DNA of 64,000 nucleotides from Candidatus Nomurabacteria bacterium GW2011_GWB1_43_19 (GCA_000999465.1 LCGB01000003.1:4252-68251), one strand, 5' to 3'; numbered from the stretch's first letter, positions 25,901-53,132 are shown. The notes: generated from the sequence alone by a model not told the origin. A program made the numbers and translations.

Positions 25901-25994
25901 GGTAGTTATTATGGACAAAAGCAAGATAGTTGAGACCAATGTGAAAAAATTACACAAAATTTATCATAAATTTTCAAATGAAAACCGAAACTAA
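22980..25994 (+). CDS. purL: Phosphoribosylformylglycinamidine synthase, PurS-PurL fusion with in-frame Pro/Gly-rich insertion
   Basis: N-terminal PurS-like region (RIYVTPKGKADF...KPGVTDNAGHT), then PurL AIRS domains (VETHNSPSALDPFGGAITG, GKDSM). Residues ~606-640 are encoded by a GC-rich palindromic element. Confidence 0.85.
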   Translation: MISRIYVTPKGKADFINSYLIAHKFSKERIEKIAQALTNPVLENYSINEFPKTEKFSYAIEIGFKPGVTDNAGHTAEETIYDLFHIPSGVGHRDFGCPTPDGTLAVYTSKIFLIHEADRKEAEQIALSLHNPLIERSYIVSRKDLQKNKNLFLEAPRVILEKRVPVINISLDVLDDELVKIGQEGIRDEKGDRRGPLALDLASMKAIQEHFRKLKRNPTDIELESLAQTWSEHCKHTIFANPIDDIHDGLYKTYIKGATNLIRKNKGRRLGGASKNDFCVSVFSDNSGGIVFDKNYLITHKVETHNSPSALDPFGGAITGIVGVNRDTIGFGLGAKPVANVYGFCFGYPEDEQKFFKDKNMTQLMLPPKRIMKGVIKGINVGGNCSGIPTLSGFLKFDDRYRAKPLVFAGTVGIIPRKINGKFLHTKEAKAGDYIVMVGGRVGLDGIHGATFSSVAMDANSPATAVQIGDPITQKKLSDAIVKEARDMGLYNSITDNGAGGLSCSVAEMAKECGGAKVALEKVPLKYPGLCPWEIWISESQERMTLSVPKSKWKKFENLMESRGVEATVIGEFTKAEKCVVKYKGKKIMDIPMDFLHNGLPKHHLYTSPPASLLEPPYSPLSGGNHLPPLIRGGREGLEGMAERPGEIYTKDLENLLGNKNISGFSFVSEQYDHEVQASSVLKPLSGAGRINTDAQIFRPVLDSPKGVVLTSSAYPSYGDISAYNMAACAIDTAVRNIISAGGTLSHLAILDNFCWCSSNDPKRLGQLVGAVKACYDCAVGYGTPFISGKDSMFNDFKGYDERGNPVDISIPPTLLISAISVMPDLYKAVSPEFKKTGDIIYLLGETNDEMGGGEYLKSLGFVGNNTPKVDVKKNMRTYLALEKAIQEGLVSSSLSVTSGGLGIALAKAAVGGMMGCNISLSPIGKTYGVDVKLFSESQGRILVSVPSKNVSAFEKIIKNISFAKLGRVVGGGKVVIMDKSKIVETNVKKLHKIYHKFSNENRN
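24796..24900. repeat. GC-rich nested palindromic element inserted in frame in purL
   Basis: Core CCCCCTTATCAGGGGG...CCCCTGATAAGGGG, flanked by CCTCTCTCC.../...GGAGGTCGGGAGGGG. About 65% GC. Encodes TSPPASLLEPPYSPLSGGNHLPPLIRGGREGLEG within PurL. Confidence 0.7.
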
Positions 25995-26625
25995 ACAATG
26001 CCAAAACTGTCCCGATTTCTTAAATTTCAAGCAACAACTTCGCGGCTGCTATGGACTTCGTAAAAAGTCTTACTGCATTTTGAATAAACAATACAGTAAG
26101 GAAACATATGAGAATTTGAAAGAAAAAATAATTGAAAGGATGAGAGCTGGCAGAGAATGGGGACAATTCTTCCCCAAAAGCATGAGTCCTTTCGCTTACA
26201 ACGAAGCAATTGCGAATGAATATATGCCGCTTTCTAAAGAGAAAGCTGCTGTTCAGGGTTTTCGCTGGCAAGACGATATACCGAGCACCAAAGGGCAGGG
26301 AACTATGGATAATTCAAAATTACCCGAAAATCCTAATGAATATAATGATAATTTAACACAGGAGATATTAACTTGTGAAAAATGCGAAAAAAACTATAAA
26401 CTCATAAAAAGAGAGATTGGTTTTTACAAGAAGAATAAATTACTTCCTCCCCGTCAATGTTTCAATTGCCGGCACGCCCTGCGGATGAGCAAGCGCAATT
26501 CCAGAAATCTTTGGGAGGGTGTTTGCGCTAAATGTGGTAATGTAATACTTACCTCTTACAAACCTGAAGATCAAAAGATTTATAAACTTTACTGCGAAAA
26601 ATGTTATCAGCAAGAAGTATATTAA
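25978..26625 (+). CDS. Cysteine-rich multi-zinc-ribbon protein, short paralog (family member D)
   Basis: It shares CILNKQY[ST]KE.Y, SPFAYNE, the C-terminal zinc-ribbon module (CEKC..Y..I..E..FYKK...P.RQCFNCR) and the terminal YCEKCYQQEVY with the 34811, 50052 and 51402 ORFs. Confidence 0.6.
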   Translation: MKTETKQCQNCPDFLNFKQQLRGCYGLRKKSYCILNKQYSKETYENLKEKIIERMRAGREWGQFFPKSMSPFAYNEAIANEYMPLSKEKAAVQGFRWQDDIPSTKGQGTMDNSKLPENPNEYNDNLTQEILTCEKCEKNYKLIKREIGFYKKNKLLPPRQCFNCRHALRMSKRNSRNLWEGVCAKCGNVILTSYKPEDQKIYKLYCEKCYQQEVY

Positions 26626-26670
26626 TTATCTATACTTAAAACTTAGCCATGGCATAAATTTGAGTATATT

Positions 26671-27492
26671 ATGAAAAAAAAGAAAAAATTAAAATTAAAA
26701 AAACCAAGAGTGATAATAATGTCCGGTTACGGGCTTAACTGCGAAGAGGAAACAAAATTCGCTTTTGAGAAAGCGGGAGCAAAAGAAAAGGTCAGCGCGG
26801 ACATCGTGCACATTAACGACCTGATAAAGAAGCCAAAAATGCTCTCGGAATACCAGATACTCGCTTTCCCGGGAGGATTTTCCTATGGTGACGATACGGG
26901 AAGCGGAAAGGCCTATGCTAATAAATTCAAGAATCATTTGTTAAAAGAACTGAAAGAATTTTTGTCCAGGGACACCCTAGCGATTGGCATTTGCAACGGA
27001 TTCCAAATTATGACGAATCTAGGTATTCTGCCGGGAGCTCTTTCCCAAAATAAGGGCGGAAAATATCTGGACAGATGGGTAGACCTGAAAGTTACGGGTC
27101 GGAGCCCTTGGCTCTCGGGCATTAAAAAAATCTCGGTTCCAATAGCCCACGGGGAGGGGTGCTATGTAATAAGAAAAAAGGAATATAAAAAAATGTCCGC
27201 CAAAGGCGGATCCGCCTCTGGCGGAAAAAACAATGGAGAAATTGCCCTCACTTACACCAAGGGAGATATTTGCCGTTTTCAAAATCTTGAAAAAAACCCG
27301 AACGGGTCGGCTTATGACATTGCCGGCGTGAACGCCTATAACGGCAGAGTCCTGGGGCTGATGCCCCATCCGGAACGGGCAATGTTTGTTTATCAAAGCC
27401 CTTTGTGGTATAAAAATAAAAAGGGCGATAAATCGGAAATGGGTCCCAGTTTGCGGATTTTTAAAAACGCAATCAAATACTTTATTAAATGA
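26671..27492 (+). CDS. purQ: Phosphoribosylformylglycinamidine synthase glutaminase subunit
   Basis: Class I GATase: FPGGFSYGDD, GICNGFQ and the HPE catalytic triad region. Confidence 0.85.
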   Translation: MKKKKKLKLKKPRVIIMSGYGLNCEEETKFAFEKAGAKEKVSADIVHINDLIKKPKMLSEYQILAFPGGFSYGDDTGSGKAYANKFKNHLLKELKEFLSRDTLAIGICNGFQIMTNLGILPGALSQNKGGKYLDRWVDLKVTGRSPWLSGIKKISVPIAHGEGCYVIRKKEYKKMSAKGGSASGGKNNGEIALTYTKGDICRFQNLEKNPNGSAYDIAGVNAYNGRVLGLMPHPERAMFVYQSPLWYKNKKGDKSEMGPSLRIFKNAIKYFIK

Positions 27493-28886
27493 GCGAAATT
27501 AAAGAAAAATGCGGAATAGTCGGTATATACGGCACCGGATTACCTATTGCCCGTTTAGCTTTTTTCGCTCTATTTGCGCTCCAACATAGAGGACAGGAAG
27601 CATCCGGCATCACTACCAACGACGGGAAAAAATTCCGTACTCACAAGGGCGCCGGGCTAGTATCCCAGGTTTACAAGGAAAAAGACATAAAAAAACTAAC
27701 GGGGCACATAGTCATAGGACACAACAGGTATTCAACATCAGGTGGTGGAGCCCTTAATCATGCCCAGCCGGTTGTGAATAACAATGCGTCTTTCGCTTTG
27801 GCACACAACGGAAATTTGCCAAGCGTAAAGGCTTTGAAAAAATTCCTTGCTTTAAACAAAGCGCTGCGCAAAAACCACTCGGACTCGGAACTAATAACCG
27901 ACGCCATTGATTTTTATATTAAAAAAGGCAACTCAATGGAGGCGGCGGTTATAAAAGTTTTTCCGCTCATGACCGGCGCCTTTTCCCTGGTAATGATGGA
28001 CAAGCATAATTTAATCGCTCTGCGTGATGCTTGTGGAATGCGTCCGCTGGCGCTCGGAAAAATCAAAAATGGCTATGTTGTCGCTTCGGAAACCTGCGCC
28101 CTTCAAACCATCGGCGCATCTTTCAAAAGGGAAGTGAGGCCCGGGGAAATGATTGTAATAAACAAAAAGGGACTAAAAAGCGTAAAACTGGCCAAGGCCA
28201 ACCCGAAACACGACATATTTGAATACGTTTATTTTTCCCGACCGGACAGTGTGCTTGCGGGTAAGCTAATTTATAATGTTAGGAAGAATTTCGGCAAGGC
28301 CCTGGCTCGCGAATGTAAATTAAAAATTGATGCGATAGTGCCGGTGCCCGATACGGCGACACCCGTCGCTTTAGGATACAGCCAGGTCTCCGGTATTCCA
28401 ATTGAAATGGCTTTAGTCAAAAATCGCTACGTGCATAGAACTTTCATAGAACCGGACCAAAAATCTCGCCGACGTAGCGTGGCTCTTAAACTCATACCTC
28501 TCCCGCAGGTCTTAAAAGGCAAAAAAATAGCGCTCATTGATGACTCTATAGTTAGAGGACATACATGTAAAAGATTGGTAAAAAGACTTTTTAAGGCAGG
28601 GGCTAAAGAAGTGCATCTATTAATCTCTTCTCCGCCCATACGTTTTCCGGACTTTTATGGCATGGATACTCCAAACCAAAATGAATTGATTGCATCTTTT
28701 AAAACCGTAGAAGAAATCCGTAAATTTATGGAAGCTACATCGTTACACTATCTTTCGCTTGAGGGGCTGATAAAATCCGTCGGCCTGCCGAAGACGCATC
28801 TTTCCACTTCATGCTTTACGGGTGTTTTTCCTATTGATTTAAAAGAAAGAAAAAATGAAGTAGATTATAATGTTTCAAGAAAATAA
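27489..28886 (+). CDS. purF: Amidophosphoribosyltransferase
   Basis: N-terminal nucleophile CGIVGIYG and a PRTase motif VPVPDTATP. Confidence 0.9.
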   Translation: MSEIKEKCGIVGIYGTGLPIARLAFFALFALQHRGQEASGITTNDGKKFRTHKGAGLVSQVYKEKDIKKLTGHIVIGHNRYSTSGGGALNHAQPVVNNNASFALAHNGNLPSVKALKKFLALNKALRKNHSDSELITDAIDFYIKKGNSMEAAVIKVFPLMTGAFSLVMMDKHNLIALRDACGMRPLALGKIKNGYVVASETCALQTIGASFKREVRPGEMIVINKKGLKSVKLAKANPKHDIFEYVYFSRPDSVLAGKLIYNVRKNFGKALARECKLKIDAIVPVPDTATPVALGYSQVSGIPIEMALVKNRYVHRTFIEPDQKSRRRSVALKLIPLPQVLKGKKIALIDDSIVRGHTCKRLVKRLFKAGAKEVHLLISSPPIRFPDFYGMDTPNQNELIASFKTVEEIRKFMEATSLHYLSLEGLIKSVGLPKTHLSTSCFTGVFPIDLKERKNEVDYNVSRK

Positions 28887-29487
28887 ATTAAAATTAACGG
28901 TCCTTATTTCCAATACCGGCATCGGCACCAACCTAAGGGCGATAATTGACGGAGTTGCTAAAGGCAAGATAAAAGCAGAGATTGTGGCGGTGATTTCCGA
29001 TACGACCGAAGCGCTTGGGCTGGAACACGCCAGAAAACATAATTTGGAAATTGAAATATGCGAAAAAAAAGAGAATTTGTTGCCGCTTTTACAAAAATTA
29101 AATCCGGATTATGTGTGTTTAGCCGGCTGGAAGCAAATTATTCTGGATGAAGTTATCTTGACATATCCCAATAAAATTTTAAACCTGCATCCGGGACTGG
29201 TTCCGAACACCACAGACGGAAGCGTTGAAAATCCTGATGAAACAGAAGGACTTTGGAATAAGGGCATGTTGACCGATAAAGCGATTCAAAACTTTTTAAA
29301 TAAAAAAAACACTTTTGCTGGCTCTTCTATCCATTTTCTCACTTTAAATTTTGATTTTGGGCCGGTTTTAGGAAGAACTTTTGAAAAAATTAAAGTCAGT
29401 GATACAATTGCATCGTTGTATGGAAGGTTGAAGAAAAAAGAAAATCAATTATATGTGGAAGTTTTAGAAAAACTGACTAATACTTAA
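28870..29487 (+). CDS. purN: Phosphoribosylglycinamide formyltransferase
   Basis: VLISNTGIGTNLRAII and NLHPGL motifs. It has a longer C-terminal half than E. coli PurN. Confidence 0.85.
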   Translation: MFQENKLKLTVLISNTGIGTNLRAIIDGVAKGKIKAEIVAVISDTTEALGLEHARKHNLEIEICEKKENLLPLLQKLNPDYVCLAGWKQIILDEVILTYPNKILNLHPGLVPNTTDGSVENPDETEGLWNKGMLTDKAIQNFLNKKNTFAGSSIHFLTLNFDFGPVLGRTFEKIKVSDTIASLYGRLKKKENQLYVEVLEKLTNT

Positions 29488-29518
29488 AACTCTGCAATCG
29501 CCGAAATTTAAGTAAAAT
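29483..29518 (+). promoter_or_regulatory. Conserved promoter/operator-like motif (copy 3), 5 nt upstream of purD ATG
   Basis: ACTTAAAACTCTGCAATCGCCGAAATTTAAGTAAAAT. Confidence 0.5.
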
Positions 29519-29522
29519 ATTT

Positions 29523-30809
29523 ATGCAGAAACAAAGAATTTTAATTATCGGAAGTGGAGGCAGAGAACACGCGATAGGATGGAAAATAAAGCAGTCTATT
29601 CGCGCTGAGCAGATATTTTTCGCGCCCGGAAATGGGGGTACAGGTAGAATCGGCATAAATATACCAATTAAAGCAACAGACATCCCCGCGCTACTTGATT
29701 TCGCAAAAAAAGAAAATATCACCTTGACACTAGCTCTGCCGGATGACCCGCTTGCGCTTGGAATAGTGAACGAATTTCAAAAAAAAGGCCTGCGCATTTG
29801 GGGCCCCACTAAGGAGGCGGCGCAGATTGAATGGTCAAAAACATTCTCCAAAGATTTCATGCGCAGGCACAATCTGCCTACCGCCAAATTTATGACCTTT
29901 TCTGACTACAAAATGGCTAAAAAATATATTACCGACCAAATATTTCCGATTGTCATTAAAGCGGACGGTCTGGCGCTCGGAAAAGGAGTAATCATCTGCG
30001 AAACGCGCGAGCAGGCATATGAAGCCCTGGAAAATATATTCATAAAGAAAATATTCGGGGAAGCGGGCAATGAAATAGTGGTGGAAAAATTTTTGGCCGG
30101 CCCGGAAATATCAATTCATGCTTTTTCTGACGGAAAAAATTATAAAATATTCCCGCCGTCGCAGGATCATAAAAAAATAGGCGAAGAAGACATCGGTCCC
30201 AATACCGGAGGAATGGGCACTATTGCGCCTCTTCCTTTTGTTTCCAATAATCTTTTCAAGGAAATCGAAAAAAACATTGTGGCACCGACTTTATCCGCGA
30301 TGAATTCTGATGGATATCCCTTTGTCGGTGTTATTTATCCCGGACTGGTCTTGCACAAAGACGGTCTGAAAATTTTGGAATACAACGCGCGCTTCGGCGA
30401 CCCGGAGACGCAAACCTACATGCGGCTTCTTGATACCGATATACTGGATATTTTTGACGCCTGCCTGGACGGAAAATTGAATGAAATAGAAATCATATGG
30501 AGAAACGCTTATGCCTGCACAATAATTCTCGCTTCGGGAGGCTACCCGGGAAATTACGAAAAAGGAAAAGTAGTTTCCGGCATCGACGACGCAGAAAGGG
30601 AGCTCGACATAATTGTATTTCATGCCGGCACGGCCGCGAAAGATGACAAATTTGTTACAAATGGAGGAAGAGTGCTCGGAGTTTCCGCCATCGGCATTAC
30701 TTTGGAAGAAACTCTCGCTAAAGCATATAAAGCCATAGAAAAAATTTCGTTTGAAGGTATGCAATACCGCAAAGACATCGGGAAATCCGCCCTTTTACTT
30801 TCAAAATAA
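29523..30809 (+). CDS. purD: Phosphoribosylamine--glycine ligase
   Basis: ILIIGSGGREHAIGWK N-terminus and an ATP-grasp domain. Confidence 0.9.
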   Translation: MQKQRILIIGSGGREHAIGWKIKQSIRAEQIFFAPGNGGTGRIGINIPIKATDIPALLDFAKKENITLTLALPDDPLALGIVNEFQKKGLRIWGPTKEAAQIEWSKTFSKDFMRRHNLPTAKFMTFSDYKMAKKYITDQIFPIVIKADGLALGKGVIICETREQAYEALENIFIKKIFGEAGNEIVVEKFLAGPEISIHAFSDGKNYKIFPPSQDHKKIGEEDIGPNTGGMGTIAPLPFVSNNLFKEIEKNIVAPTLSAMNSDGYPFVGVIYPGLVLHKDGLKILEYNARFGDPETQTYMRLLDTDILDIFDACLDGKLNEIEIIWRNAYACTIILASGGYPGNYEKGKVVSGIDDAERELDIIVFHAGTAAKDDKFVTNGGRVLGVSAIGITLEETLAKAYKAIEKISFEGMQYRKDIGKSALLLSK

Positions 30810-30897
30810 AGAGTACTTTGATGCGATGTCATTCAGATGTTGTCTGTAAGAATACTTACAGACACATCTTCGCTAATCGCAAAAAAAATGCTAAAAT

Positions 30898-31422
30898 ATG
30901 CCTATGAAAAATAACCCAAAAGTGGGCATAATTATGGGCTCGGACTCGGATTTGGAGGTAATGGCGGAAGCGGCAAAAATCCTTGAAGAATTCGGCGTAG
31001 GATACGAAATTACGGTGGGCTCCGCTCACCGTAGCCCCGAATTGATACACAAATACATAACAACTATACAAAAACAGGGAATCAAAATTATTATCGCGGG
31101 TGCTGGAGGCGCGGCGCATCTGGCTGGAGTAGCGGCTTCTTTAGCCACCTTGCCGGTCATAGGCATTCCAATCAAAGCCAAAACCCTGGATGGCTTGGAT
31201 TCGCTCCTTTCTACTGTCAATATGCCTCCGGGCGTGCCGGTGGCAACCGTCGGCATAAACGCCGGAAAAAACGCCGGACTGCTGGCCGTGCAGATGCTGG
31301 CCATATCGGACAAAGGCCTGGAAAATAAGCTGGCTGCTTATAAAAATAAATTAGCCAAGGATACGCAAGCCAAAGGGGAAAAACTCCTGAAAATCGGGTA
31401 TAAAAAATATCTGGGAAAATAA
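30898..31422 (+). CDS. purE: N5-carboxyaminoimidazole ribonucleotide mutase
   Basis: VGIIMGSDSDLEVM and AGGAAHLAGV motifs. Confidence 0.9.
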   Translation: MPMKNNPKVGIIMGSDSDLEVMAEAAKILEEFGVGYEITVGSAHRSPELIHKYITTIQKQGIKIIIAGAGGAAHLAGVAASLATLPVIGIPIKAKTLDGLDSLLSTVNMPPGVPVATVGINAGKNAGLLAVQMLAISDKGLENKLAAYKNKLAKDTQAKGEKLLKIGYKKYLGK

Positions 31423-32442: not shown

Positions 32443-32443
32443 A

Positions 32444-33376: not shown

Positions 33377-33377
33377 T

Positions 33378-34766: not shown

Positions 34767-34768
34767 AA

Positions 34769-34807
34769 ACTTATAACTCCGCTATCGCAGAAATATAAGT
34801 AAGTAAT
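34769..34807 (+). promoter_or_regulatory. Conserved promoter/operator-like motif (copy 4), upstream of Cys-rich gene A
   Basis: ACTTATAACTCCGCTATCGCAGAAATATAAGTAAGTAAT. Ends 3 nt before the ATG. Confidence 0.5.
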
Positions 34808-34810
34808 AAA

Positions 34811-36583
34811 ATGAAAGGGGAAAGCGAAAATAGAATACATTCAGTAGACTCAGTATCTACGACGTGCCAGAACTGCAAGGGTTCATTCACGATTGAGCCG
34901 GACGATTTCGGATTCTATGAAAAGATCAAGGTTCCGCCGCCAACTTTTTGTTTTGATTGCCGGCTACAAAGAAAACTAACTTTCGTCAACGAACGGGCGC
35001 TTTTTAAAAGAAAATGCGATAATTGCGGCAAAGACACCATAACAATGTATTCACCCAGAAACCCTTTTAGAGTTTTCTGCACTAGTTGTTACAATGATAG
35101 GAGAAACTGCCTGGAATACGGGATAGATTTAGATTTCTCAAAACATTTTCTCGCGCAATTTTATGAGCTTTTTAAAAAGGTCCCGCGGCTTCATTTGATG
35201 CACAAAAACAACAACGGCGAAGGGTGCGAGTATGCTAACCATATTTACCGCAGTCGTAGAGTTTATCTATCTTATACGATAGTAAAATCCGAAGACATTT
35301 ATTACTCCAAACAAGGCCTAGAGGGAAATAAAATTTGCTTAGATAGCTTTAATATGAAACATAGCGAGAGGGGTTATGAATTGGTCTATGTTTCAAGGGC
35401 CTATAATTCAAGATTTCTAATCCATTCTAGCCGTTGCATTGATAGTCAGTATCTTTTGCATTGCGGTGATTGTAATAATTGCTTCATGTCTCATAATCTC
35501 CGACATAAAAGCTATGTTTTTAGAAATCAACAATTGACTAGAGAAGAGTATTTCAAGGAGATGAAAAAAATTAAACTTGATTCCTATACCGAACAAGAAA
35601 AGTTAAAAAAAGAATTTTCTGAATTACCTAGAATGACAGGCCCAGCCCAAGTCAAGGCGGTTGTAAATGTAACCGGCGACTTTATTGGTCATTCAAAAAA
35701 CGCTAAATACTGTTTTAGCAATGTTGATACAGAAAATTCTAAATATATTGTTTTTGGTGTAAATACTATTCGAGATTGTTATGATCTAATGTTTGCTGGC
35801 CGGAGTGAACTTTGTTACGAATGTGCTGGTAGCGGCGCTCAAAATAATAATGTTTCTTTCTCTCTTGATATAGGAGCAAATCATGAGATTAATTATTGTA
35901 TTTCTACTAACAATTGCGGATACTGTTTTGGTTGTGTCGGTATAACCAATCAAAATTATTGCATTCTCAATAAACAGTACACCAAAGAAGAATACGAAAA
36001 GCTGGTGCCGAAAATTATTAAGCACATGAATCAAATGCCCTATGTGAGCAAAATAGGGAGGGTGTATAAATACGGCGAATTTTTTCCAGAAGAATTCTCA
36101 CCTTTCGCTTATAATGAAAGTTTGGCCTACGAAGAATTTTCAATGACGAAAGAAGAAGTTTTAAAAGAGGGCTACGAGTGGCGGGACTTGGAGGAGAAGC
36201 AGTATAAAACCACTATTGATAATAGAGATTTACCTGATAGTGTTAATGATGTCAAGGACAGTATTCTTGAAGAAGTAATTGCTTGTCCCAATCAGGGTCA
36301 GACCGAGACCAAGTGCACCTACGGCTTTAGAATTGTGCCAGATGAACTTAGATTTTATCGTTTAATGAAGATACCACTGCCTAGACTTTGTCCAAACTGC
36401 CGCTATTATGAACGTCGTAAGTGGCTTAACCCGTGGAAACTCTGGCATCGGCAATGTATGTGCAGTAAAAAGAATCACTTTCACGGAGTGGAAAAGTGTG
36501 AGGTGGAATTTGAGACGTCATACGCCCCGGAGAGGCCGGAAATTGTTTACTGCGAAAAATGCTACCAGGCGGAGATGTATTAA
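34811..36583 (+). CDS. Cysteine-rich multi-zinc-ribbon protein, long paralog (family member A)
   Basis: N-terminal CQNCKGSFTIEPDDFGFYEKIKVPPPTFCFDCRLQR, a second ribbon KRKCDNCGK...FCTSCY, a Cys-rich core (CIDSQYLLHCGDCNNC..., CYECAGSG...CGYCFGCVGITNQNYCILNKQYTKEEY), SPFAYNES, a C-terminal ribbon CPNCRYYERRKWLNPWKLWHRQCMC and terminal ETSYAPERPEIVYCEKCYQAEMY. No signal peptide or TM. Confidence 0.7.
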   Translation: MKGESENRIHSVDSVSTTCQNCKGSFTIEPDDFGFYEKIKVPPPTFCFDCRLQRKLTFVNERALFKRKCDNCGKDTITMYSPRNPFRVFCTSCYNDRRNCLEYGIDLDFSKHFLAQFYELFKKVPRLHLMHKNNNGEGCEYANHIYRSRRVYLSYTIVKSEDIYYSKQGLEGNKICLDSFNMKHSERGYELVYVSRAYNSRFLIHSSRCIDSQYLLHCGDCNNCFMSHNLRHKSYVFRNQQLTREEYFKEMKKIKLDSYTEQEKLKKEFSELPRMTGPAQVKAVVNVTGDFIGHSKNAKYCFSNVDTENSKYIVFGVNTIRDCYDLMFAGRSELCYECAGSGAQNNNVSFSLDIGANHEINYCISTNNCGYCFGCVGITNQNYCILNKQYTKEEYEKLVPKIIKHMNQMPYVSKIGRVYKYGEFFPEEFSPFAYNESLAYEEFSMTKEEVLKEGYEWRDLEEKQYKTTIDNRDLPDSVNDVKDSILEEVIACPNQGQTETKCTYGFRIVPDELRFYRLMKIPLPRLCPNCRYYERRKWLNPWKLWHRQCMCSKKNHFHGVEKCEVEFETSYAPERPEIVYCEKCYQAEMY

Positions 36584-36587
36584 CATA

Positions 36588-36626: not shown

Positions 36627-36663
36627 ATCTACGTTAAAGTGTAGATACAAAAAACTGAAATAA

Positions 36664-36697
36664 CGCTATGGTAGCGGCCGCTACTATTGTATTATTA
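36664..36697. repeat. AT-flanked GCGGCCGC-core palindromic element (copy 2)
   Basis: CGCTATGGTAGCGGCCGCTACTATTGTATTATT. Lies downstream of Cys-rich gene A. Confidence 0.7.
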
Positions 36698-36738
36698 TGT
36701 GTTTTTTTATTTCAACTATAATCTGCTATAATTGTTCT

Positions 36739-37599
36739 ATGAACTTTAAGAAAATCGGAATTGTCTTATTTTTGATACTTTTTTTGTTTCCAATAAATAG
36801 AATATTAGCCCAAACGACGAATGCTGGCTTTGTGCCAGCTAATATCTGGTATTCGCAGGACCCGTTTGAAGAAGGGGATAAGGTAAAAATATATACGGTA
36901 ATTTTCAACCCCGATTCCAGGCAATTATCGGGAAGCGTGATTTTTTTTGATAACAGCGTTTTTTTGGGCAAAAAGGACTTTACGGCCGAAACGAAAAGCG
37001 TCAAGGATGTATATCTGGACTGGACGGCCACCGTCGGAGAGCATAGTATTTTCGGCAAAATTGAAAATGCTAAATTCTTGGTCTCCCTGGGAAAATATGA
37101 GGAAGTTTATCTGGCGGAAAACGAAACGAGCAAAAGTTTGCGTACGGTAAGCAAAAAAATAATCACGGTAGCCGACACGACTGACCCAAGCGCAATTACA
37201 AATCCAATATTGAATATTGTAAATGCTGTCAGTTTCGAGCCGATTAAAAATATTGGGAAAATAATAGGAGATAACACGCCGGAGTTTATAGCCCAACCCA
37301 CAATTTCAACCGCCAATATGGTTGAAGAGTTGCGCATTAATGCAGGCATCGTCCTAGAAACCAAAAGAAAAGAAGTCAAAGAAAACATCCGGGCGCTGGA
37401 TCCAAGCACGGAAGAAGCAGCTCCGGGGTCAAATTCTCCCGAGGCAGAGCCGAGTAAATTCTTAAAACCTTTTAAATATGCGGAGCTTTTTGCCTTGGCC
37501 CTGTTTTCGACCACTTTTAATAATAAACTCATTTTCTATACGGTCCTCATTTTGATTATTTTCTTTTTGTTGCGTTATATAATGAAGCGTGTAAGATAA
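36739..37599 (+). CDS. Hypothetical secreted/membrane-anchored protein (signal peptide + C-terminal TM)
   Basis: Hydrophobic N-terminus MNFKKIGIVLFLILFLFPINRILAQ and C-terminal helix LIFYTVLILIIFFLL. No recognisable domain. The track ORF starts at 36697. Confidence 0.5.
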   Translation: MNFKKIGIVLFLILFLFPINRILAQTTNAGFVPANIWYSQDPFEEGDKVKIYTVIFNPDSRQLSGSVIFFDNSVFLGKKDFTAETKSVKDVYLDWTATVGEHSIFGKIENAKFLVSLGKYEEVYLAENETSKSLRTVSKKIITVADTTDPSAITNPILNIVNAVSFEPIKNIGKIIGDNTPEFIAQPTISTANMVEELRINAGIVLETKRKEVKENIRALDPSTEEAAPGSNSPEAEPSKFLKPFKYAELFALALFSTTFNNKLIFYTVLILIIFFLLRYIMKRVR

Positions 37600-41663: not shown

Positions 41664-41672
41664 ACGATGAAT

Positions 41673-41698: not shown

Positions 41699-41700
41699 AT

Positions 41701-42041: not shown

Positions 42042-42401
42042 ATGCAAAAAATCAAGCGATTTTGGGAAAGCGAGAAGGGGAAGGATATTCTGATAGTTAT
42101 TATCGTGATTTTAGTAGGCCTGGGATCGTTTGAACTGGGTCGGCTATCCAAAGAAAGCGCCCAGGGAGGCCTAAAAATAGAGTATCCGGGCCTAAATGGG
42201 GCTCAAGAGGCCAATGTGATTTCGACGGCCGCACCCGCAGAAAGATTCGGAAAAAATTTCTTCGCTTCAAATCGGGGAACTAAATATTACTCAATCGGCT
42301 GTTCCGGCGGCAAAACCATCAAAGAAGAAAATAGGGTTTGGTTTTGGACAGGGGAGGAAGCCGAAGAGGCCGGATATGCGCTTTCCGCCTCGTGTCAGTA
42401 A
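42042..42401 (+). CDS. Hypothetical membrane-anchored protein with Ada-type metal-binding-like C-terminal motif
   Basis: N-terminal TM. The C-terminal YYSIGCSGGKTIKEENRVWFWTGEEAEEAGYALSASC resembles the Ada_Zn_binding pattern (F..seeEA..AGYRPC). Confidence 0.45.
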   Translation: MQKIKRFWESEKGKDILIVIIVILVGLGSFELGRLSKESAQGGLKIEYPGLNGAQEANVISTAAPAERFGKNFFASNRGTKYYSIGCSGGKTIKEENRVWFWTGEEAEEAGYALSASCQ

Positions 42402-42559
42402 TCTATATCCACGTCGCACAATATATGTTTGCGGCCACCTTTAGTGTATCTCAAACATTACGTAGATTGTACGTACGTTAAAACGTCGTACAATCTACTT
42501 CAATAATTCATTATTTATTCACAATATGCTGCTCTGCGGCCTATGTGTGCCTCCTTAAT

Positions 42560-42886: not shown

Positions 42887-42923
42887 TTGATTTTAAAAAA
42901 TCACCTACTGGGTCGGGTTATTT

Positions 42924-43073
42924 TTATTGAAAAACTCCGCTAAAAAATGACACAAACCAATTCCAAACTCCGGAAACGGTTACTCCCAAGAATTTCATTA
43001 TGAGTAAAGCAATGATAATGAAAATAATTATTTGCAAAAATCCTTTTTCTTTGTTTTTCATTTTATTTATCAT
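42924..43073 (-). CDS. Possible 49-aa membrane peptide
   Basis: MINKMKNKEKGFLQIIIFIIIALLIMKFLGVTVSGVWNWFVSFFSGVFQ. Below the ORF-track cutoff, with no homology support. Confidence 0.25.
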   Translation of the reverse strand: MINKMKNKEKGFLQIIIFIIIALLIMKFLGVTVSGVWNWFVSFFSGVFQ

Positions 43074-43116
43074 ATGTATATTTTACCACAAATTACCAAA
43101 TCAGGGCAATATTATC

Positions 43117-45778: not shown

Positions 45779-45821
45779 AGTGCCATTTTAGCACTTATTT
45801 CCTTATTTTGAAAATTAAAAA

Positions 45822-48049: not shown

Positions 48050-48065
48050 TGCTTTTTCCCGTCTT

Positions 48066-49121
48066 CTATCTGCTGATAATGGCTAAAATTATGCCGATAA
48101 TGGCAAAAACCACCGAGAGAATCCAGAAACGCATTGTTACTTTGTATGGTGACCAGCCGATGGCTTCAAAATGGTGGTGTATGGGCGCTAACCTAAAAAT
48201 TCTTTTACCTCCACGTAATTTCTTTGAAACAAGTTGTAAAATAACCGAACCGGATGTAATAACGAGTGGTAGAGCGACAACGGGAAGGATTAGGACCGAA
48301 TCGGTAAGGAATGCTAAGGTCGCCAGGGTGATAGTGAGCCCCATGACACCCGTCTCTCCCATATAAAATCTAGCCGGCGGAATATTGAACCAAAGAAAGG
48401 CTAGGATGGCGCCGGTTATAACTCCAGAAAAGGCGGCAATGTCTATTTGGTTGTTGGCATAAGCTATCGCCGAATAAGCGGTAAATATGGCGGCCAGCAC
48501 TCCGCCCGAGAGCCCGTCAATGCCGTCAATAACCCCGCCGGAAAAAGTGGCAAGCGCAACAATCATGAAAAACGGAATAATCAGAATGTCCAGGTAAATT
48601 TCCCCGCCGAAAGGAATATGGAGAGAAGTCATGCCCAGCTTATAGAAAAACCAGAGGCCTATCAAAAAAGAAATCAGAGCGATGAGAAAGGCCTTCCATT
48701 TGCGCCAGGATTTGTCGTCGCGAGCAAATTTTCCAGTACCATAAATTTGAATCAAGTCATCCCATAGACCTATCAATGAACCGACTAAAAGTGTGAAAAG
48801 TGGTATGAATGTCTGATTACGGCTCAAAAAATTCATTTTCTCCGTATAGAGAGTTGGAAACATTATTGAAACGAGATAAAAAATAAGCGTGGTGAAGAGA
48901 ACACCCATCCAGATTATTATTCCGCCTGCGCGAGGAGTTCGGAGTTCCGCTTCCTCGTTGTGAATTTTCGGAAAGTCGGAAGTGTTTATATTGGTGTTCC
49001 GGGAATACTTCTTCCACATCCTGTATTTGTAGAAAAAATGCGTCGCAACCGGGGTCAATAAAAGGCCCATAAAAAAGGCCACAGTCGTCGGCAGAAAGAT
49101 TTTAATCAGGTCCAAATACAT
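48066..49121 (-). CDS. mraY: Phospho-N-acetylmuramoyl-pentapeptide transferase
   Basis: GLWDD and the DGIDGL motif (as VIDGIDGLSGG). Confidence 0.9.
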   Translation of the reverse strand: MYLDLIKIFLPTTVAFFMGLLLTPVATHFFYKYRMWKKYSRNTNINTSDFPKIHNEEAELRTPRAGGIIIWMGVLFTTLIFYLVSIMFPTLYTEKMNFLSRNQTFIPLFTLLVGSLIGLWDDLIQIYGTGKFARDDKSWRKWKAFLIALISFLIGLWFFYKLGMTSLHIPFGGEIYLDILIIPFFMIVALATFSGGVIDGIDGLSGGVLAAIFTAYSAIAYANNQIDIAAFSGVITGAILAFLWFNIPPARFYMGETGVMGLTITLATLAFLTDSVLILPVVALPLVITSGSVILQLVSKKLRGGKRIFRLAPIHHHFEAIGWSPYKVTMRFWILSVVFAIIGIILAIISR

Positions 49122-49175
49122 AGGATGAGTATAGCATTTTTTGATTAAAATGCATCCGTGTGTTATTGTCTTTAA

Positions 49176-49988
49176 GTGAATAATCTAACTTTCAAACACA
49201 TATTGCCGGTCGCCGTATTAATCCTGCTATGTATTCCGATAGCGACTTCTTCGCTTCTGGACTTGGAGCAAAAAAGAGAAAATGAATTGCTTTTGGAGCA
49301 AGAGCGGATTCAAAAAGAGGCCGAATTGAAAATTTACCTGATGGGTAAATTTGAACCGGCAGAAAGGAAGGATTTTTCCTTGATACCCGAGAAATACAAT
49401 GTCGGAGGATACGGGATGTATTTACGGACGGAAACCCTGGATGCATTCTCGCAGATGGCGAACCAAGCGGAGCAAGACGGGGTAAATTTAAGAATCGCTT
49501 CCGCCACCCGGAACTTTACCTATCAAAAAAGCATCTGGGAAAACAAGTGGACCGGTGTGGCCTATGTGGACGGAGAAAATCTTACGAAAAGCATTCCGAA
49601 TGGACTGGAAAGGTTCAAAAAGATATTGGAATATAACTCCGTTCCGGGCATTTCGCGCCATCATTGGGGTACCGATATAGATATCAATAACGCGAACCTC
49701 TCGTATTTCGGGACGAAAGAAGGTAAAAAGGTGTATGAGTGGCTGGTAAATAATGCTTGGATGTTCGGCTTTTGCCAGCCCTATAATTTAAAAGGGAGCG
49801 AACGGCTGACCGGCTACAATGAAGAAAAATGGCATTGGTCCTATCTTCCACTTGCCCAAAATTTTACGCAAGAATATAAAAATTTAATCAAGACAGAAGA
49901 CATCAACGGCTTCCTGGGCGCTGAATATGGTCCGGGAATAAATTTAATCAGCGACTACGTCCTCGGAATTAATCCGGAGTGCCTCTAA
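49176..49988 (+). CDS. M15 family D-alanyl-D-alanine carboxypeptidase (VanY-like)
   Basis: Signal peptide plus SRHHWGTDIDI and a W..NAW.FGF tail, typical of M15B peptidases. Confidence 0.75.
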   Translation: MNNLTFKHILPVAVLILLCIPIATSSLLDLEQKRENELLLEQERIQKEAELKIYLMGKFEPAERKDFSLIPEKYNVGGYGMYLRTETLDAFSQMANQAEQDGVNLRIASATRNFTYQKSIWENKWTGVAYVDGENLTKSIPNGLERFKKILEYNSVPGISRHHWGTDIDINNANLSYFGTKEGKKVYEWLVNNAWMFGFCQPYNLKGSERLTGYNEEKWHWSYLPLAQNFTQEYKNLIKTEDINGFLGAEYGPGINLISDYVLGINPECL

Positions 49989-50008
49989 TCTACGCTATGG
50001 CGTAGATT
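49987..50008 (+). terminator. Hairpin after M15 peptidase gene
   Basis: AATCTACGCTATGGCGTAGATT is followed by a T-rich tract. Confidence 0.5.
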
Positions 50009-50012
50009 GATT

Positions 50013-50051
50013 TATGTTATCACTTTTGGACGGCCGTCAAATTTGATAACA
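50013..50051. repeat. Conserved 3' block of Cys-rich paralogs (copy at gene B) containing palindrome TTTGACGGCCGTCAAA
   Basis: TTATCACTTTTGGACGGCCGTCAAATTTGATAACATTAA is near-identical to 51362-51401 downstream of gene C. Confidence 0.75.
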
Positions 50052-51356
50052 TTAATACATCTCTGCCTGGTAGCACTTTTCGCAATATACAATTTCCGGC
50101 CTATCCGGAGCATAAGAGGTCTCAAATTCCACCGGGCACCTTGCCCCGCCCTGGCGCGGGTCCCCCGCCCCGTGGAAATGATTTTCTTTCTTACACATAC
50201 ATGAACGGTGCCAAAGTTTGAAAGGGTTGGTTCGTTTAACCCGCGCCTGGTGCCGGCAATGAAAACATCTCCTCGGAATAGGTATGTTCATTTTCTTATA
50301 AAAATTCAGTTCGTTCGAGACAATCTTGTAATTTCTCTTGCAGTTTGTGCACGCCAAAATTTCTTCCAGAATTGAATCGCCGACATCATCGATTGATTCG
50401 GGAATTTTTCCCGGCAATAAAGTTTCTTTGCCGGTAGTTTTTTGTATGTTGTTTTGCCAATTATACCCCGCTTCATTTGCTTCTTTTTTCGCAAGCGGAA
50501 ATTGTTCCATAGCGCAAGATTCGTTATAGCCGAAATATGAAAGTTCTACCGGAAAATATTCCCCGTATGAATACTTATTACCTTTTTTATCTAAAAAAGG
50601 CATGGTATCCATGTGCTCCATAATTTTAGGCATAAGTTCCCCATATTGTTCTTTGGTATATTGTTTATTAAAAATGCAATAATTCGTATTGCGTAGCCCC
50701 ACACAGCCGAAAACATGCTTGCAGTTGTGGCAATCGTAAAGAAATTGCGAGTCAACGCAGGCCAAGCAGATTTCCGAATATTTGGTCTGATATGACTTAC
50801 TACAAAGAATGCATTCATATATCCAATTGCTCTCTGACCGGATATTCATGCAGTCCACAATATCTTTGCCTTTCAATATGAAGAAGCTGTACATGACATT
50901 TTCCACGTACCATCCGGAAAAGCACATATAGCAATTCTTGGAAAACCACCAGTCGTGGGTGTATTCGCAGTTCAAGCTGGCAATCCCGTCGTCATTAACA
51001 ATTGCCATGTGCGGGACTCTTTTCATCAACTCAATGAATTGGGCAAAAAATGGCTTTGAAAAATCATAGTCAACCCCGTAACTTTTCGGATCCCATTTAT
51101 CACTCCACCAGCATTTATTGCAGTACACAATAATCCCGGAATCCGGATGGTAAATGGAAATAATTCCTTTGCCGCACAGGTCACATTTGCGATTATAAAG
51201 GGACATATTGTTCCTCCAGGCCCAACGCCTCTGCCTCCGGCAGTCCGGACAAAAGGTTGGCGGGGGAACCTTTATTTTCTCGTAAAATCCGAAATCATCC
51301 GGTTCTATAGTAAAATTCTTTTTGCAATTAACACAATTTTTTATATCCTGTTTCAT
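50052..51356 (-). CDS. Cysteine-rich multi-zinc-ribbon protein, paralog (family member B)
   Basis: Same modules as the 34811 ORF: CVNCKKNFTIEPDDFGFYEKIKVPPPTFCPDCRRQRR ... CVDSQFLYDCHNCKHVFGCVGLRNTNYCIFNKQYTKEQY ... CTNCKRNYKIV..FYKKMNIPIPRRCFHCR ... ETSYAPDRPEIVYCEKCYQAEMY. Confidence 0.7.
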   Translation of the reverse strand: MKQDIKNCVNCKKNFTIEPDDFGFYEKIKVPPPTFCPDCRRQRRWAWRNNMSLYNRKCDLCGKGIISIYHPDSGIIVYCNKCWWSDKWDPKSYGVDYDFSKPFFAQFIELMKRVPHMAIVNDDGIASLNCEYTHDWWFSKNCYMCFSGWYVENVMYSFFILKGKDIVDCMNIRSESNWIYECILCSKSYQTKYSEICLACVDSQFLYDCHNCKHVFGCVGLRNTNYCIFNKQYTKEQYGELMPKIMEHMDTMPFLDKKGNKYSYGEYFPVELSYFGYNESCAMEQFPLAKKEANEAGYNWQNNIQKTTGKETLLPGKIPESIDDVGDSILEEILACTNCKRNYKIVSNELNFYKKMNIPIPRRCFHCRHQARVKRTNPFKLWHRSCMCKKENHFHGAGDPRQGGARCPVEFETSYAPDRPEIVYCEKCYQAEMY

Positions 51357-51361
51357 TTTAT

Positions 51362-51401
51362 TTATATTATCACTTTTGGACGGCCGTCAAATTTGATAAC
51401 A
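51362..51401. repeat. Conserved 3' block of Cys-rich paralogs (copy at gene C) containing palindrome TTTGACGGCCGTCAAA
   Basis: Same sequence as 50013-50051. It directly abuts the start codon of gene B. Confidence 0.75.
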
Positions 51402-53132
51402 TTAATACACTTCTGCCTGATAGCATTTCTCGCAGTATATGATTTCCGGTCGGTTGGGGGCGTAGGATGTTTCAAATTTGTTAAGGCAACCCTTTTTCAT
51501 ACATTTGCGGTGCCAGAGTTTACGTGGGTTACGCAAGACAAACCTGTCTTGTCTGCGACATGAAAAACATTTTTCTGGAATAGGTAGGTTGAGTATTTTG
51601 CATAATGAAAGTTCTAAAGGAATAATTTTGAAAGCGGTTATGCATAAGGGATATTTTTCTTTTTCACTGGAGGAGTTTTGTGAAGAGCATTGAATTGTTT
51701 CTTTTGCAAGATTTTCCTTTATATCGCTAAAAGTTTTCGGCAGATTTTTAGTCAGAAGCGTTATTTGATAATCGCGGGGTGGCCGGTCATACCAGGTGTA
51801 ACCCTTTTTAAGGACTTCATTTTTGGTTAGGGGGAAATAATCTTGCGCCATTGACTCGTTGTAGGCAAACGGTGAGACCCGCGCCGGGAAATATTCCCCC
51901 CATTCCTTTGTCTTCCTCATGTGCTCAATTATCTCACTTTTGAGTTTGGTATATTGCTCCTTTGTGTATTGCTTGTTTAATATGCAGTATTGCCCTTTTT
52001 TAAGACCAAAACATCCAAAACAATTATCCGTTGTAAAGCACATATCGCAGTAACATGAATCCGTTATGCTGTTAAAACAACTTCTGATAAACATTGACCG
52101 GTGCGGCGACTCAACCCCTTGAACTTCATACGATAATTCACCAATAATTACTTCCGTGCAATCCTGACAATCAGCCGTCTTAAACCACACATCTTGCATA
52201 TACGCAGTATCTTTAAGAAGATGACAATTAAATACACGTCGTGCTCGTTGCGTACTTCCTATATAATCTCCTGTCGAATTTTGAATTTTTGAACCATGAT
52301 AATATTTTACCGGAGTACTAATGTTAAGTTCCATAACTTTTTTTTTCGATTCTTCTATGGAACTCCTATTAAATGAAAATTTTTTTAATTTTTCTTCATA
52401 TTGCGTTTTTGTAAGAGCTTTATTAAACCAATAATACTGCCTCTTGCGGAGACCCACACATCCAAAACAATTCAAACATCCCCTACAATCAATACAAAAT
52501 TCAAGTCCGACAGAATCAAAACAATCTTGACACCATACACATTTAGAACACCTTGCAATATTCATACATTCATAACAAAACTCACTTTTAAAGGCCATGT
52601 AGCAGTCGCTTAAAAAGTGACTGTCATGACACCAGCTTCCATACATACACTTTTCATTTGAGCCGCTGGTAACCAGCATATAACACTCCTTGTTGTCCTG
52701 AGACTGGTTTGTGTACTCGCTGTTAACGCTGTTTGAATTAACCATCGCCAGATGTGGCACTTCACGGCGAAGCTCTTCATACTGTTCAAAAAAGGACCGG
52801 CTAAAATCAAAGTCTCGCCCGTAATCCTTGGCATCAAAGGCGTCGGATTTCCAATATTCCTGCTCATACACCGAGAATGGAGCATCTGGGCGATAAATAG
52901 AAATAATGTCTTTTCCTGTAGCGTCGCATTTTCTTTTATAAAAGTTATATTCGTTTCTGTCTAACAAGCGCCTGATGTATCGACAATCCGGGCAAAAGGT
53001 TGGCGGGGGAACCTTTATTTTCTCGTAAAATCCGAAATCATCCGGCTCGATTATAAAATTGCCCTTACAATTCTGACACACCACATTTTGTGATTTATAT
53101 TCCATAACTTTTTTGTCCCGATTCTGATTCAT
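51402..53132 (-). CDS. Cysteine-rich multi-zinc-ribbon protein, paralog (family member C)
   Basis: N-terminal CQNCKGNFIIEPDDFGFYEKIKVPPPTFCPDCRYIRR. The core is richer in CxxC (CSKCVWCQDCFDSVGLEFCIDCRGCLNCFGCVGL; CYCDMCFTTDNCFGCFGL...CILNKQYTKEQY). Also SPFAYNES and C-terminal ETSYAPNRPEIIYCEKCYQAEVY. Confidence 0.7.
   Translation of the reverse strand: MNQNRDKKVMEYKSQNVVCQNCKGNFIIEPDDFGFYEKIKVPPPTFCPDCRYIRRLLDRNEYNFYKRKCDATGKDIISIYRPDAPFSVYEQEYWKSDAFDAKDYGRDFDFSRSFFEQYEELRREVPHLAMVNSNSVNSEYTNQSQDNKECYMLVTSGSNEKCMYGSWCHDSHFLSDCYMAFKSEFCYECMNIARCSKCVWCQDCFDSVGLEFCIDCRGCLNCFGCVGLRKRQYYWFNKALTKTQYEEKLKKFSFNRSSIEESKKKVMELNISTPVKYYHGSKIQNSTGDYIGSTQRARRVFNCHLLKDTAYMQDVWFKTADCQDCTEVIIGELSYEVQGVESPHRSMFIRSCFNSITDSCYCDMCFTTDNCFGCFGLKKGQYCILNKQYTKEQYTKLKSEIIEHMRKTKEWGEYFPARVSPFAYNESMAQDYFPLTKNEVLKKGYTWYDRPPRDYQITLLTKNLPKTFSDIKENLAKETIQCSSQNSSSEKEKYPLCITAFKIIPLELSLCKILNLPIPEKCFSCRRQDRFVLRNPRKLWHRKCMKKGCLNKFETSYAPNRPEIIYCEKCYQAEVY

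Follow-up and report, generated by a model that had tools for sequence, protein, structure and literature searches.

What are the four large, cysteine-rich proteins encoded among the housekeeping genes of a Candidatus Nomurabacteria genome, and what might such proteins do? The question arises from a stretch of 64,000 nucleotides of Candidatus Nomurabacteria bacterium GW2011_GWB1_43_19 (GCA_000999465.1, LCGB01000003.1:4252-68251), referred to here, at its full length, as the window. A preliminary description had singled out four open reading frames (ORFs) in it, which we call A, B, C and D, as a four-member family of cytoplasmic proteins with invariant ends and divergent cores. Our analysis answers the first part of the question with high confidence, in the form of a structural and evolutionary description. 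The four proteins are part of a family of thousands, in which a doubled zinc-finger module at each end is predicted to frame two narrow beta-solenoids and an acidic region. The second part receives a more tentative answer: the proteins may be non-enzymatic adaptors whose ends dock on a common partner.

Doubled zinc fingers around repetitive cores

All four ORFs lie where the preliminary description had placed them (Table 1), and their homology is far above chance, with pairwise identities of 37-48% and E-values of 1e-37 to 1e-115 in tblastn searches of the window. No fifth copy was found in the window by tblastn, and the family hidden Markov model matches just these four of its 61 ORFs. Cysteine makes up 5.6-6.9% of the four proteins, against a median of 0.79% in the other 57 ORFs, and CxxC motifs number 5 in A, 11 in B, 11 in copy C and 15 in D. 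None of the four has a transmembrane (TM) segment or a signal peptide: maximum Kyte-Doolittle(19) values range from 0.34 to 1.69, the peak of 1.69 falling within a ribbon of D. At residues that are identical between copies, the same codon is used at frequencies of 0.35-0.54, compared with the 0.44-0.46 expected from codon usage. Codon identity at this chance level indicates that synonymous sites are saturated, and it rules out recent duplication or gene conversion among the copies.

The plan of the family is best read from copy B, whose residue numbers are used throughout; family conservation is given over 169 diverse members. Its two ends resemble one another (hhalign probability 99.1%, E = 7e-19), and so do its two solenoids (99.4%, E = 1e-21). 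The homology within both pairs indicates that fingers and solenoids arose by internal duplication. Each solenoid closes with the pattern C..C..CFGCVGL..Y.I.NKQY.KEEY. Self-similarity in both cores peaks at all multiples of three residues, with maxima at 12 and 24 (1.97 and 1.88 times the mean in core 1), and a control region is flat. The AlphaFold2 (AF2) model of B (mean predicted local distance difference test, pLDDT, 77.3; predicted template modeling score, pTM, 0.79) renders solenoid 2 as a series of short strands spaced 12-13 residues apart. The periods of 3 and 12 together point to a core built as a narrow beta-solenoid with 12-residue coils.

Table 1. Coordinates of the four cysteine-rich ORFs and of the predicted modules of copy B
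Feature	Residues of B	Window position	Strand	Description
Copy A		25978..26625	+	215 aa, reduced short form
Copy B		34811..36583	+	590 aa, full-length, just 3′ of purB
Copy C		50052..51356	-	434 aa, internally deleted
Copy D		51402..53132	-	576 aa, full-length, tandem with copy C
N-terminal module	12-100	34844..35110	+	ribbon 1 C19, C22, C47, C50 (zf_Tbcl-like); Arg-rich helix; ribbon 2 C69, C72, C90, C93 (zf_Tbcl_2-like)
Linker helix	101-130		+	between N-terminal module and solenoid 1
Solenoid 1	131-240	35201..35530	+	ends with family-wide CxxCxxC..GL..Y..N (C209, C218, C221, C224)
Helical linker	241-290	35531..35680	+	joins the solenoids; absent from copy C
Solenoid 2	291-390	35681..35980	+	strands every 12-13 residues; ends FGCVG..YCILNKQYTKEEY
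Long helix and acidic region	391-480	35981..36250	+	GEFFP..SPFAYNES..GYEW
C-terminal module	481-590	36251..36580	+	ribbon 1 C492, C502, C527, C530; basic helix; ribbon 2 C549, C563, C581, C584; ends VYCEKCYQAEMY

Across the family a protein holds a median of 34 cysteines (range 22-43), about 8 times the proteome background, and these residues differ in their conservation. It is 88-99% for the cysteines in ribbons N1, C1 and C2 and 64-85% for those in N2; the residues that close solenoid 1 (C209 and C218-xx-C221-xx-C224) are 81-98% conserved, and those that close solenoid 2 (C366, C375 and C384) 79-95%. The other core cysteines, numbering 3-18 in core 1 and 3-14 in core 2, are poorly conserved between paralogs. 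The four ribbons, with sixteen cysteines in four CxxC...CxxC sites, plausibly bind zinc. Charge is unevenly distributed along the protein: the terminal modules are basic (family median pI 8.7, net charge +4 to +5), and region 391-480, for which no structural match was found, is acidic (family median pI 4.8, net charge -6.5).

This plan bears on the earlier claim that all four copies share one module order, invariant termini and a common set of motifs. Only B and D are full length, A and copy C being reduced. "Invariant" is too strong a word for termini whose modules are 49-67% identical among B, C and D, where the cores are 20-30% identical. The motifs are present, with variants. The stretch EPDDFGFYEKIKVPPPTFC is identical across B, C and D. 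FGCVG...NKQY[ST]KE occurs in B, C and D, the variant in A being GCYGL...NKQYSKE; SPFAYNE occurs in A, B and D, the variant in copy C being SYFGYNES; and the end ETSYAP.RPEI[VI]YCEKCYQAE[MV]Y is shared by B, C and D.

The reduced copies show which parts of the plan can be dispensed with. In A the N-terminal CxxC is joined to the tail of a solenoid (GCYGL..YCILNKQYSKE), after which come a helix, the acidic stretch with SPFAYNE and, last, the double zinc finger of the C-terminus, so that the first four modules are missing; its AF2 model has a pLDDT of 87.9. Short orthologs of A, 212-214 aa long, are found in other genomes. One of them (P0138) occupies the same slot between purL and purQ and carries a similar in-frame internal deletion, which brings the first CxxC region up against the solenoid tail. 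The retention of such short forms at one locus argues that the C-terminal half is a conserved functional unit. Copy C, whose NCBI match at 100% identity is a hypothetical protein from Candidatus Nomurabacteria bacterium RIFCSPHIGHO2_01_FULL_43, is internally deleted: a single, chimeric solenoid remains, and the linker between solenoids is gone. In D the second N-terminal ribbon is degenerate, with 1 of its 4 cysteines left; given the lower conservation of N2 cysteines across the family, this loss is a common variant. Solenoid 1 of D is the richest in cysteine and includes two CxxCxxCxxC runs.

Two further traces of degenerate copies were noticed. In Nomurabacteria GW2011_GWF2_43_8 (L085:5478-7113), three family copies lie between purL and purQ, the middle one split into pieces of 184 and 370 aa. 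The split probably reflects a frameshift, a pseudogene or an assembly error, and is consistent with decay of the A lineage from a full-length gene. In the window, the spacer between scpB and D holds an ATG-led fragment, MQSETKICQNCPDFLKFKK (53152..53208, minus strand), 74% identical to residues 1-19 of A, out of frame with D and unlike D's own N-terminus. It resembles what a lost short copy of the A type, or a recombination event, would leave behind.

How does this architecture relate to known proteins? Searches of Pfam, NCBIfam, PADLOC and PHROGs with the four proteins, and of Pfam with 58 aligned homologs, returned sub-threshold zinc-finger matches only, and no enzyme family was matched in those library scans or in PDB. 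PDB searches with a single protein and with a profile revealed no relative, the top match (E = 0.13) being an unrelated RING ligase. The preliminary description had recognized no characterized family, and we agree: no Pfam, NCBIfam, PDB or fold match rises above threshold, and the shared termini do align among the copies. The sub-threshold matches are nevertheless informative. Against curated cut-offs of 27 bits for PF23477 (zf_Tbcl_2) and 36 bits for TIGR04272, A, B and copy C score 22.5, 20.5 and 12.3 bits with the former (D has no match) and 20.1, 18.6 and 14.5 bits with the latter; PF23477 also matches weakly in 14 of the 58 homologs. For ribbon 1 (CxxC..F.....FY......P..CxxCR), PF13451 (zf_Tbcl) finds nothing in the window even at E ≤ 1 and matches weakly, below threshold, in 22 of the 58 homologs (best E = 1.3e-4). 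A few database relatives carry the Pfam labels of these domains. The CxxC-x17-CxxC spacing of zf_Tbcl_2 and TIGR04272 is exact in N-terminal ribbon 2 of B and of copy C (C58, C61, C79, C82), and A has x19 in place of x17. In the C-terminal ribbon 2 of B, C563-x17-C581xxC584 is kept and the first cysteine pair is spaced differently. Furthermore, a bona fide PF23477 finger from a neighboring ATPase, discussed below, aligns with family ribbon N2 at an hhalign probability of 93% (E = 3.5e-7) and with ribbon C2 at E = 2e-3. On these grounds the terminal fingers are probably distant relatives of zf_Tbcl (PF13451) and zf_Tbcl_2 (PF23477 and TIGR04272, a probable treble clef). The known zf_Tbcl and zf_Tbcl_2 domains are small, standing alone or appended to other proteins. 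Here, by contrast, the pair is doubled at both ends of a protein of ~580 aa whose solenoids and acidic region are covered by no model.

The predicted cores invite comparison with other beta-helices. They have the 12-residue coil of the antifreeze proteins of Tenebrio molitor (1ezg) and spruce budworm (1m8n), and the interior of the Tenebrio protein is filled by disulfides. Sequence identity between the family core and an antifreeze protein is 9%, and no Thr-x-Thr ladder of the insect type was noticed on reading the family translations and consensus, where no pattern search was run. Antifreeze proteins and the curli subunit CsgA (8c50) are secreted and disulfide-bonded or amyloid, whereas the family lacks a signal peptide and its solenoids are flanked by zinc fingers. 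The likeness is one of fold class only and implies neither homology nor common function. The left-handed beta-helix of hexapeptide acyltransferases and gamma-carbonic anhydrases is further removed, with an 18-residue coil instead of 12; no hexapeptide repeat Pfam model matches the family, and Foldseek E-values to such enzymes all exceed 0.1. Nor does any bactofilin or curlin Pfam model match, and both solenoids are flanked by folded modules in the AF2 model.

Among cysteine-rich proteins, models for Fer4, ferredoxin, rubredoxin, metallothionein and Hsp33 found no match in the four proteins or the 58 homologs. Iron-sulfur (Fe-S) proteins carry CxxCxxCxxxCP, whereas the end of solenoid 1 has CxxCxxC(xxC) without the proline. 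The DnaJ_CXXCXGXG model does not match the family either; a true DnaJ with this motif is a separate neighboring gene. The VirD4/TrwB coupling proteins are kin of another neighboring gene, and the cysteine-rich proteins have no ATPase or type IV secretion system (T4SS) domain. The literature searched holds no description of this family, the nearest statement concerning the enrichment in Parcubacteria of several families of hypothetical cytoplasmic proteins (10.1101/335083). The combination of modules, the acidic region, the scale of the family and its organization in arrays thus appear to be undescribed in the libraries and papers searched. Overall, the family is a new architecture assembled from recognizable kinds of domain.

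An extensive family of old paralogs

The family reaches far beyond the window, and the label of a four-member family does not survive. Searched exhaustively with a family profile, 1.84 billion cluster representatives (50% identity) yielded 4,700 matches at E ≤ 1e-3, 3,532 at 1e-10 and 2,056 clusters at 1e-30. In a word-indexed protein search at least 7,965 of 8,000 candidates were significant, most of them 565-600 aa long. Among the matches listed, none carries a Pfam domain and nearly all are unnamed or "hypothetical"; the entries with a descriptive name are all "hypothetical" except for three automatic labels. A further scan, limited to one genome per species, turned up at least 550 stretches that encode family proteins. 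The lineages named in its records are Nomura-, Giovannoni-, Jorgensen-, Lipton-, Brenner- and Staskawiczbacteria, Paceibacterota and Minisyncoccia; several matches are labeled generically as "uncultured Candidatus Saccharibacteria" and others only as "bacterium." One partial protein from another search is labeled Gracilibacteria. The preliminary description had proposed looking for relatives in the Candidate Phyla Radiation (CPR)/Patescibacteria, and the named relatives, one partial match aside, all bear CPR/Patescibacteria labels, mostly Paceibacteria. These matches give good support to the view that the proteins form a very large, ancient, soluble cysteine-rich family, confined so far to Paceibacteria. 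A phage or mobile origin was considered and rejected: no relatives occur in viral contigs (IMG/VR), no defense or phage models match, and the spacers between genes leave too little room for the ends of an element.

The organization of the genes was followed in 83 loci, 82 from other genomes plus the window, with 182 family genes, 136 of which encode proteins of 560-600 aa. Tandem arrays on one strand are common: 32 loci have one copy, 21 have two, 16 three, 6 four and 6 five, and the largest array, in one Brennerbacteria locus, has 8 copies over 13.7 kb. Members of an array are not each other's closest kin. The median best identity is 42% within a locus and 61% in another genome, and of 134 array genes only 2 have their closest relative at their own locus, the other 132 having it in another genome. 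Tandem neighbors are therefore ancient paralogs. Together with the saturated synonymous sites, this result upholds the earlier view of the copies as old paralogs under purifying selection. At ~50% identity the family divides into ~30-50 subclusters, and arrays mix these subclusters.

The cores behave differently in the two kinds of comparison. In ortholog-like pairs (n = 40, 70% identical overall), core 1 is 73% and core 2 67% identical, and the N- and C-terminal modules are each 72% identical. In paralog pairs from the same locus (n = 152, 41% overall), core 1 falls to 34% and core 2 to 27%, with the N-module at 49%, the C-module at 48% and the core end plus helix at 59%. Cores that are conserved in orthologs and divergent in paralogs must be paralog-specific and under purifying selection, rather than fast-evolving filler. 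Arms-race diversification was rejected on the same comparison, since between orthologs the cores are conserved like the termini.

Housekeeping operons and a soluble TrwB/VirD4-like ATPase

Family genes are packed co-directionally in housekeeping operons, with spacers of tens of bases. In the window the contexts are those already reported, namely purL|A|purQ, purB|B and VanY(M15)|C D|scpB, where purL belongs to AIRS/FGAR-AT, purQ to GATase_5 and purB to Lyase_1/ASL_C, and scpA lies beyond scpB. The start of A overlaps the last 17 nt of purL (25978-25994), and its stop is 45 nt from purQ. This overlap and short gap place A within the purine operon, where it is probably translationally coupled. 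Scans for promoters and terminators gave site numbers no higher than in shuffled sequence.

Several of these positions recur. The order purL-family-purQ-purF-purN is found in 6 loci and scpA-scpB-(VanY)-pair-mraY-ftsW-murG in 7, the window being counted in both. Another recurrent position is L13-S9-GrpE-family-family-PaaX-like-DnaK, with the PaaX-like gene on the opposite strand, and arrays ending at CutA1 also recur, CutA1 being a neighbor in 7 loci. Linkage to purine and cell-wall genes, which the preliminary description had proposed checking, is synteny conserved in a few related genomes and does not extend across the family. A specific role in purine or cell-wall metabolism was rejected, because these positions reflect local synteny among at least four housekeeping contexts. 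In the window the VanY gene (49176-49988, plus strand) separates the family pair from mraY, whereas in two related genomes (L001, L002) it separates scpB from the pair, a small local rearrangement in otherwise conserved synteny.

The commonest neighbor in the 83 loci is a P-loop ATPase without TM segments, with TrwB_AAD_bind and TraG-D_C domains and also T4SS-DNA_transf and DUF87. It carries a bona fide zf_Tbcl_2 finger (59 bits, E = 3.4e-16). This finger-bearing ATPase occurs in 13 of the 83 loci, 9 of which have it immediately next to a family gene on the same strand. Under a rough null model with two such genes in every ~850, binomial tails are 1e-6 for presence and 5e-10 for adjacency, and these values overstate the significance because the sampled loci are phylogenetically related. 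The adjacency spans different subfamilies and different orders, with the ATPase gene before, after or between family genes. In the reciprocal test, 80 metagenome loci were retrieved from the ATPase side; 12 contain family genes, directly adjacent in 10, and all 12 are among the closest relatives of the ATPase. The extended block reads GrpE-family-PaaX(opposite strand)-DnaK-finger-bearing ATPase-family-short ATPase-DnaJ. Thus, in part of the lineage, linkage to the finger-bearing TrwB-like ATPase and to the Hsp70 operon is non-random.

The ATPases themselves deserve description. Between dnaK and dnaJ they form a pair, seen in loci L007, L079, L086, L087, L089, L091 and L117 (for example L007:2397-8344). 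The first is a finger-bearing protein of 630-760 aa with a long low-complexity tail and the second a paralogous short form of 480-515 aa without the finger, both lacking TM segments. To our knowledge, such a chaperone-operon context has not been described for coupling-protein homologues. More distant finger-bearing ATPases (L118-L165, for example L146:4342-13126) have no family genes beside them. They stand in the string secD-secF-(sigma70_r4/HARE-HTH)-(~440 aa, no Pfam)-ATPase-pgk-DHH phosphoesterase-RNase H, which suggests that the finger-bearing ATPase is a core CPR gene. Unlike the VirD4/TrwB type IV coupling proteins (T4CPs), the neighbor ATPase has no N-terminal membrane anchor, and its gene lies in the dnaK operon or after secDF, not with virB4. 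A survey of CPR bacteria counted 5,713 VirD4-like T4CPs in 2,918 genomes, only 148 of them near virB4, and found T4SS without relaxases; its authors raise the possible exaptation of T4CPs (10.1101/2025.01.22.634366).

Three other features of the window stand apart from the family. Immediately 3′ of B is a 300-aa ORF (36697-37599, plus strand) with no Pfam match at E ≤ 1e-3. The lowest G+C of the window (0.33, against ~0.42) is at 16001-18000, which includes a tRNA-Gln (16450-16521) and three ORFs of 152-171 aa. A 119-aa ORF at 42042-42401 (plus strand) matches an Ada zinc-binding domain below threshold (20.4 bits, cut-off 23); it contains cysteines and is unrelated to the cysteine-rich family.

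Possible adaptors and the alternatives

What function would account for constant ends and paralog-specific cores? We tentatively favor, as possible rather than probable, the reading that the proteins are non-enzymatic, metal-stabilized adaptors or scaffolds. Their zinc-finger ends would serve as constant "handles" docking on a common partner, and the rigid solenoid surfaces would confer the binding specificity of each paralog. The likeliest common partner would be the soluble, hexameric TrwB/VirD4-like ATPase that bears the same zf_Tbcl_2 finger, and the family would pick out or bring different clients, whether protein or nucleic acid, for this one ATP-driven machine. F-box-like modular adaptors may offer an analogy in their conservation logic, with a constant docking module, a paralog-specific repeat and many paralogs, although they have no sequence or structural relation to the family. 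We prefer the adaptor reading because it fits the conservation logic best and uses the sole recurrent functional neighbor.

A number of observations weigh against it. The link to the ATPase is one of gene position only, and it appears in only ~11-16% of the sampled loci, whose relatedness inflates its apparent strength. No such ATPase lies near any of the four copies in the window, and family genes also occupy the pur, scpAB-mraY and CutA contexts. The finger-bearing ATPase is widespread, after secD-secF, in CPR lineages without the family, and so does not need it. AF2 confidence is low (45-68) in solenoid 1 of B. A catalytic site of a kind that the models do not recognize may exist, and basic, arginine-rich fingers are equally compatible with direct binding of nucleic acid.

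That last point leads to the strongest of four alternatives, although we still consider it unlikely: the basic double fingers would bind DNA or RNA and the solenoid would be a spacer bridging two segments, as in a nucleoid- or RNA-associated scaffold. The basic modules (pI 8.7, net +4 to +5) suit such a role. R51, R531 and R535 are at least 90% conserved in the 169 sequences, and R54, R55, R67, K74, R504, K507, R525, K543, R547 and R575 are nearly invariant only in the 58-sequence alignment, which is biased to C-type orthologs. In addition, the same type of finger is fused to the TrwB-type ATPase, the Pfam domain of which is described as DNA-binding, and one conserved position adjoins the chromosome condensation genes scpA-scpB. 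However, constant fingers combined with varying solenoids are the opposite of sequence-specific finger recognition, the net charge of the modules is modest, and the strongly acidic region (-6.5) adjoins the C-terminal module. The abundance of cysteine suggests something else again, namely that the proteins handle metals or thiols, as zinc or Fe-S carriers or buffers or as redox-sensing holdases like Hsp33 or the DnaJ zinc centre, with the solenoid caps and the cysteine ladder binding metal beyond the four ribbons. A median of 34 cysteines, conserved caps at both solenoid ends (81-98% and 79-95%), the two CxxCxxCxxC runs of D, a 12-residue coil too narrow for an ordinary hydrophobic core, and CutA1 (7 loci) and the GrpE-DnaK-DnaJ operon as recurrent neighbors all accord with it. 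We nonetheless judge it improbable. Core cysteines outside the caps are poorly conserved between paralogs, a pattern that suits small-residue packing more than defined metal sites; none of the models for ferredoxin, rubredoxin, metallothionein, DnaJ_CXXCXGXG and Hsp33 matched; CutA1's own function is unclear; and storage would leave dozens of ortholog-conserved paralog types unexplained.

The neighboring coupling-protein homologues can also be read as a sign of export. The conserved termini would then be signals for the VirD4-like ATPase, which would deliver the proteins through a T4SS into a host cell, where the solenoid would act as effector. Conserved ends around a variable middle, the lack of a Sec signal and the multigene arrays are compatible with this idea, as are the 5,713 VirD4-like T4CP genes of CPR genomes, mostly far from virB4 (10.1101/2025.01.22.634366). 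It is more improbable still. The neighbor ATPases lack the N-terminal membrane anchor, and neither inspection of the sequences nor Pfam revealed a VirB4 or other T4SS component in the 20 largest clusters of recurrent neighbors. Moreover, the paralogs are ancient and conserved (61% median identity to the best ortholog) without signs of lineage-specific diversification, their genes are embedded in housekeeping operons, viral contigs hold no relatives, and tightly metal-folded fingers would probably be poor translocation substrates. Least credible of the four is a cytoskeletal or structural polymer, in which solenoids would stack end to end, as in bactofilins or curli, into filaments or a lattice of paralogous subunits tied to neighboring division and segregation genes. 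The scpA-scpB-pair-mraY-ftsW-murG position in 7 loci and the many paralogs per genome speak for it, but folded domains cap both solenoid ends and would block head-to-tail stacking, the AF2 model (pTM 0.79) points to a compact monomer, Pfam scans gave no bactofilin or curlin match, and the division cluster is one of at least four contexts. The probability left over by the adaptor reading and these four alternatives is assigned to something else.

A bolder form of the adaptor reading would combine the family, the two soluble TrwB/VirD4-like ATPases and the flanking Hsp70 genes into one unrecognized Paceibacteria system, in which dozens of paralogous adaptors choose clients for a single ATP-driven remodeling or export machine, each adaptor being a cytoplasmic beta-solenoid with 12-residue coils, filled with metal and closed off by zinc fingers. 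We regard this as doubtful taken as a whole, placing it between direct nucleic-acid binding and metal handling in likelihood. If true, it would reveal a new structural class, a beta-helix interior held by metal-thiolate instead of disulfides, and a new logic of client selection in minimal-genome organisms.

The value of the family may be more immediate. No Pfam or NCBIfam model spans the full-length protein, so even if it proves to be a plain zinc-finger scaffold, its description offers annotation for at least 2,056 protein clusters. The family can serve as a lineage marker for Paceibacteria, and copy A is a tractable minimal unit of 215 aa for biochemistry. The cores possibly represent a new way to build a cytoplasmic beta-helix. 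Through the family there is also a link, open to testing, with the soluble T4CP-like ATPases found in CPR bacteria, whose role the T4SS survey poses as an open question (10.1101/2025.01.22.634366).

In some Paceibacteria this one family takes up as many as eight tandem genes, or ~14 kb of sequence, and dozens of distinct paralog types have been kept over very long times. Paceibacteria genomes measure about 1 megabase or less. Such a cost in a streamlined genome implies that the function of these proteins, whatever its nature, is an important one.

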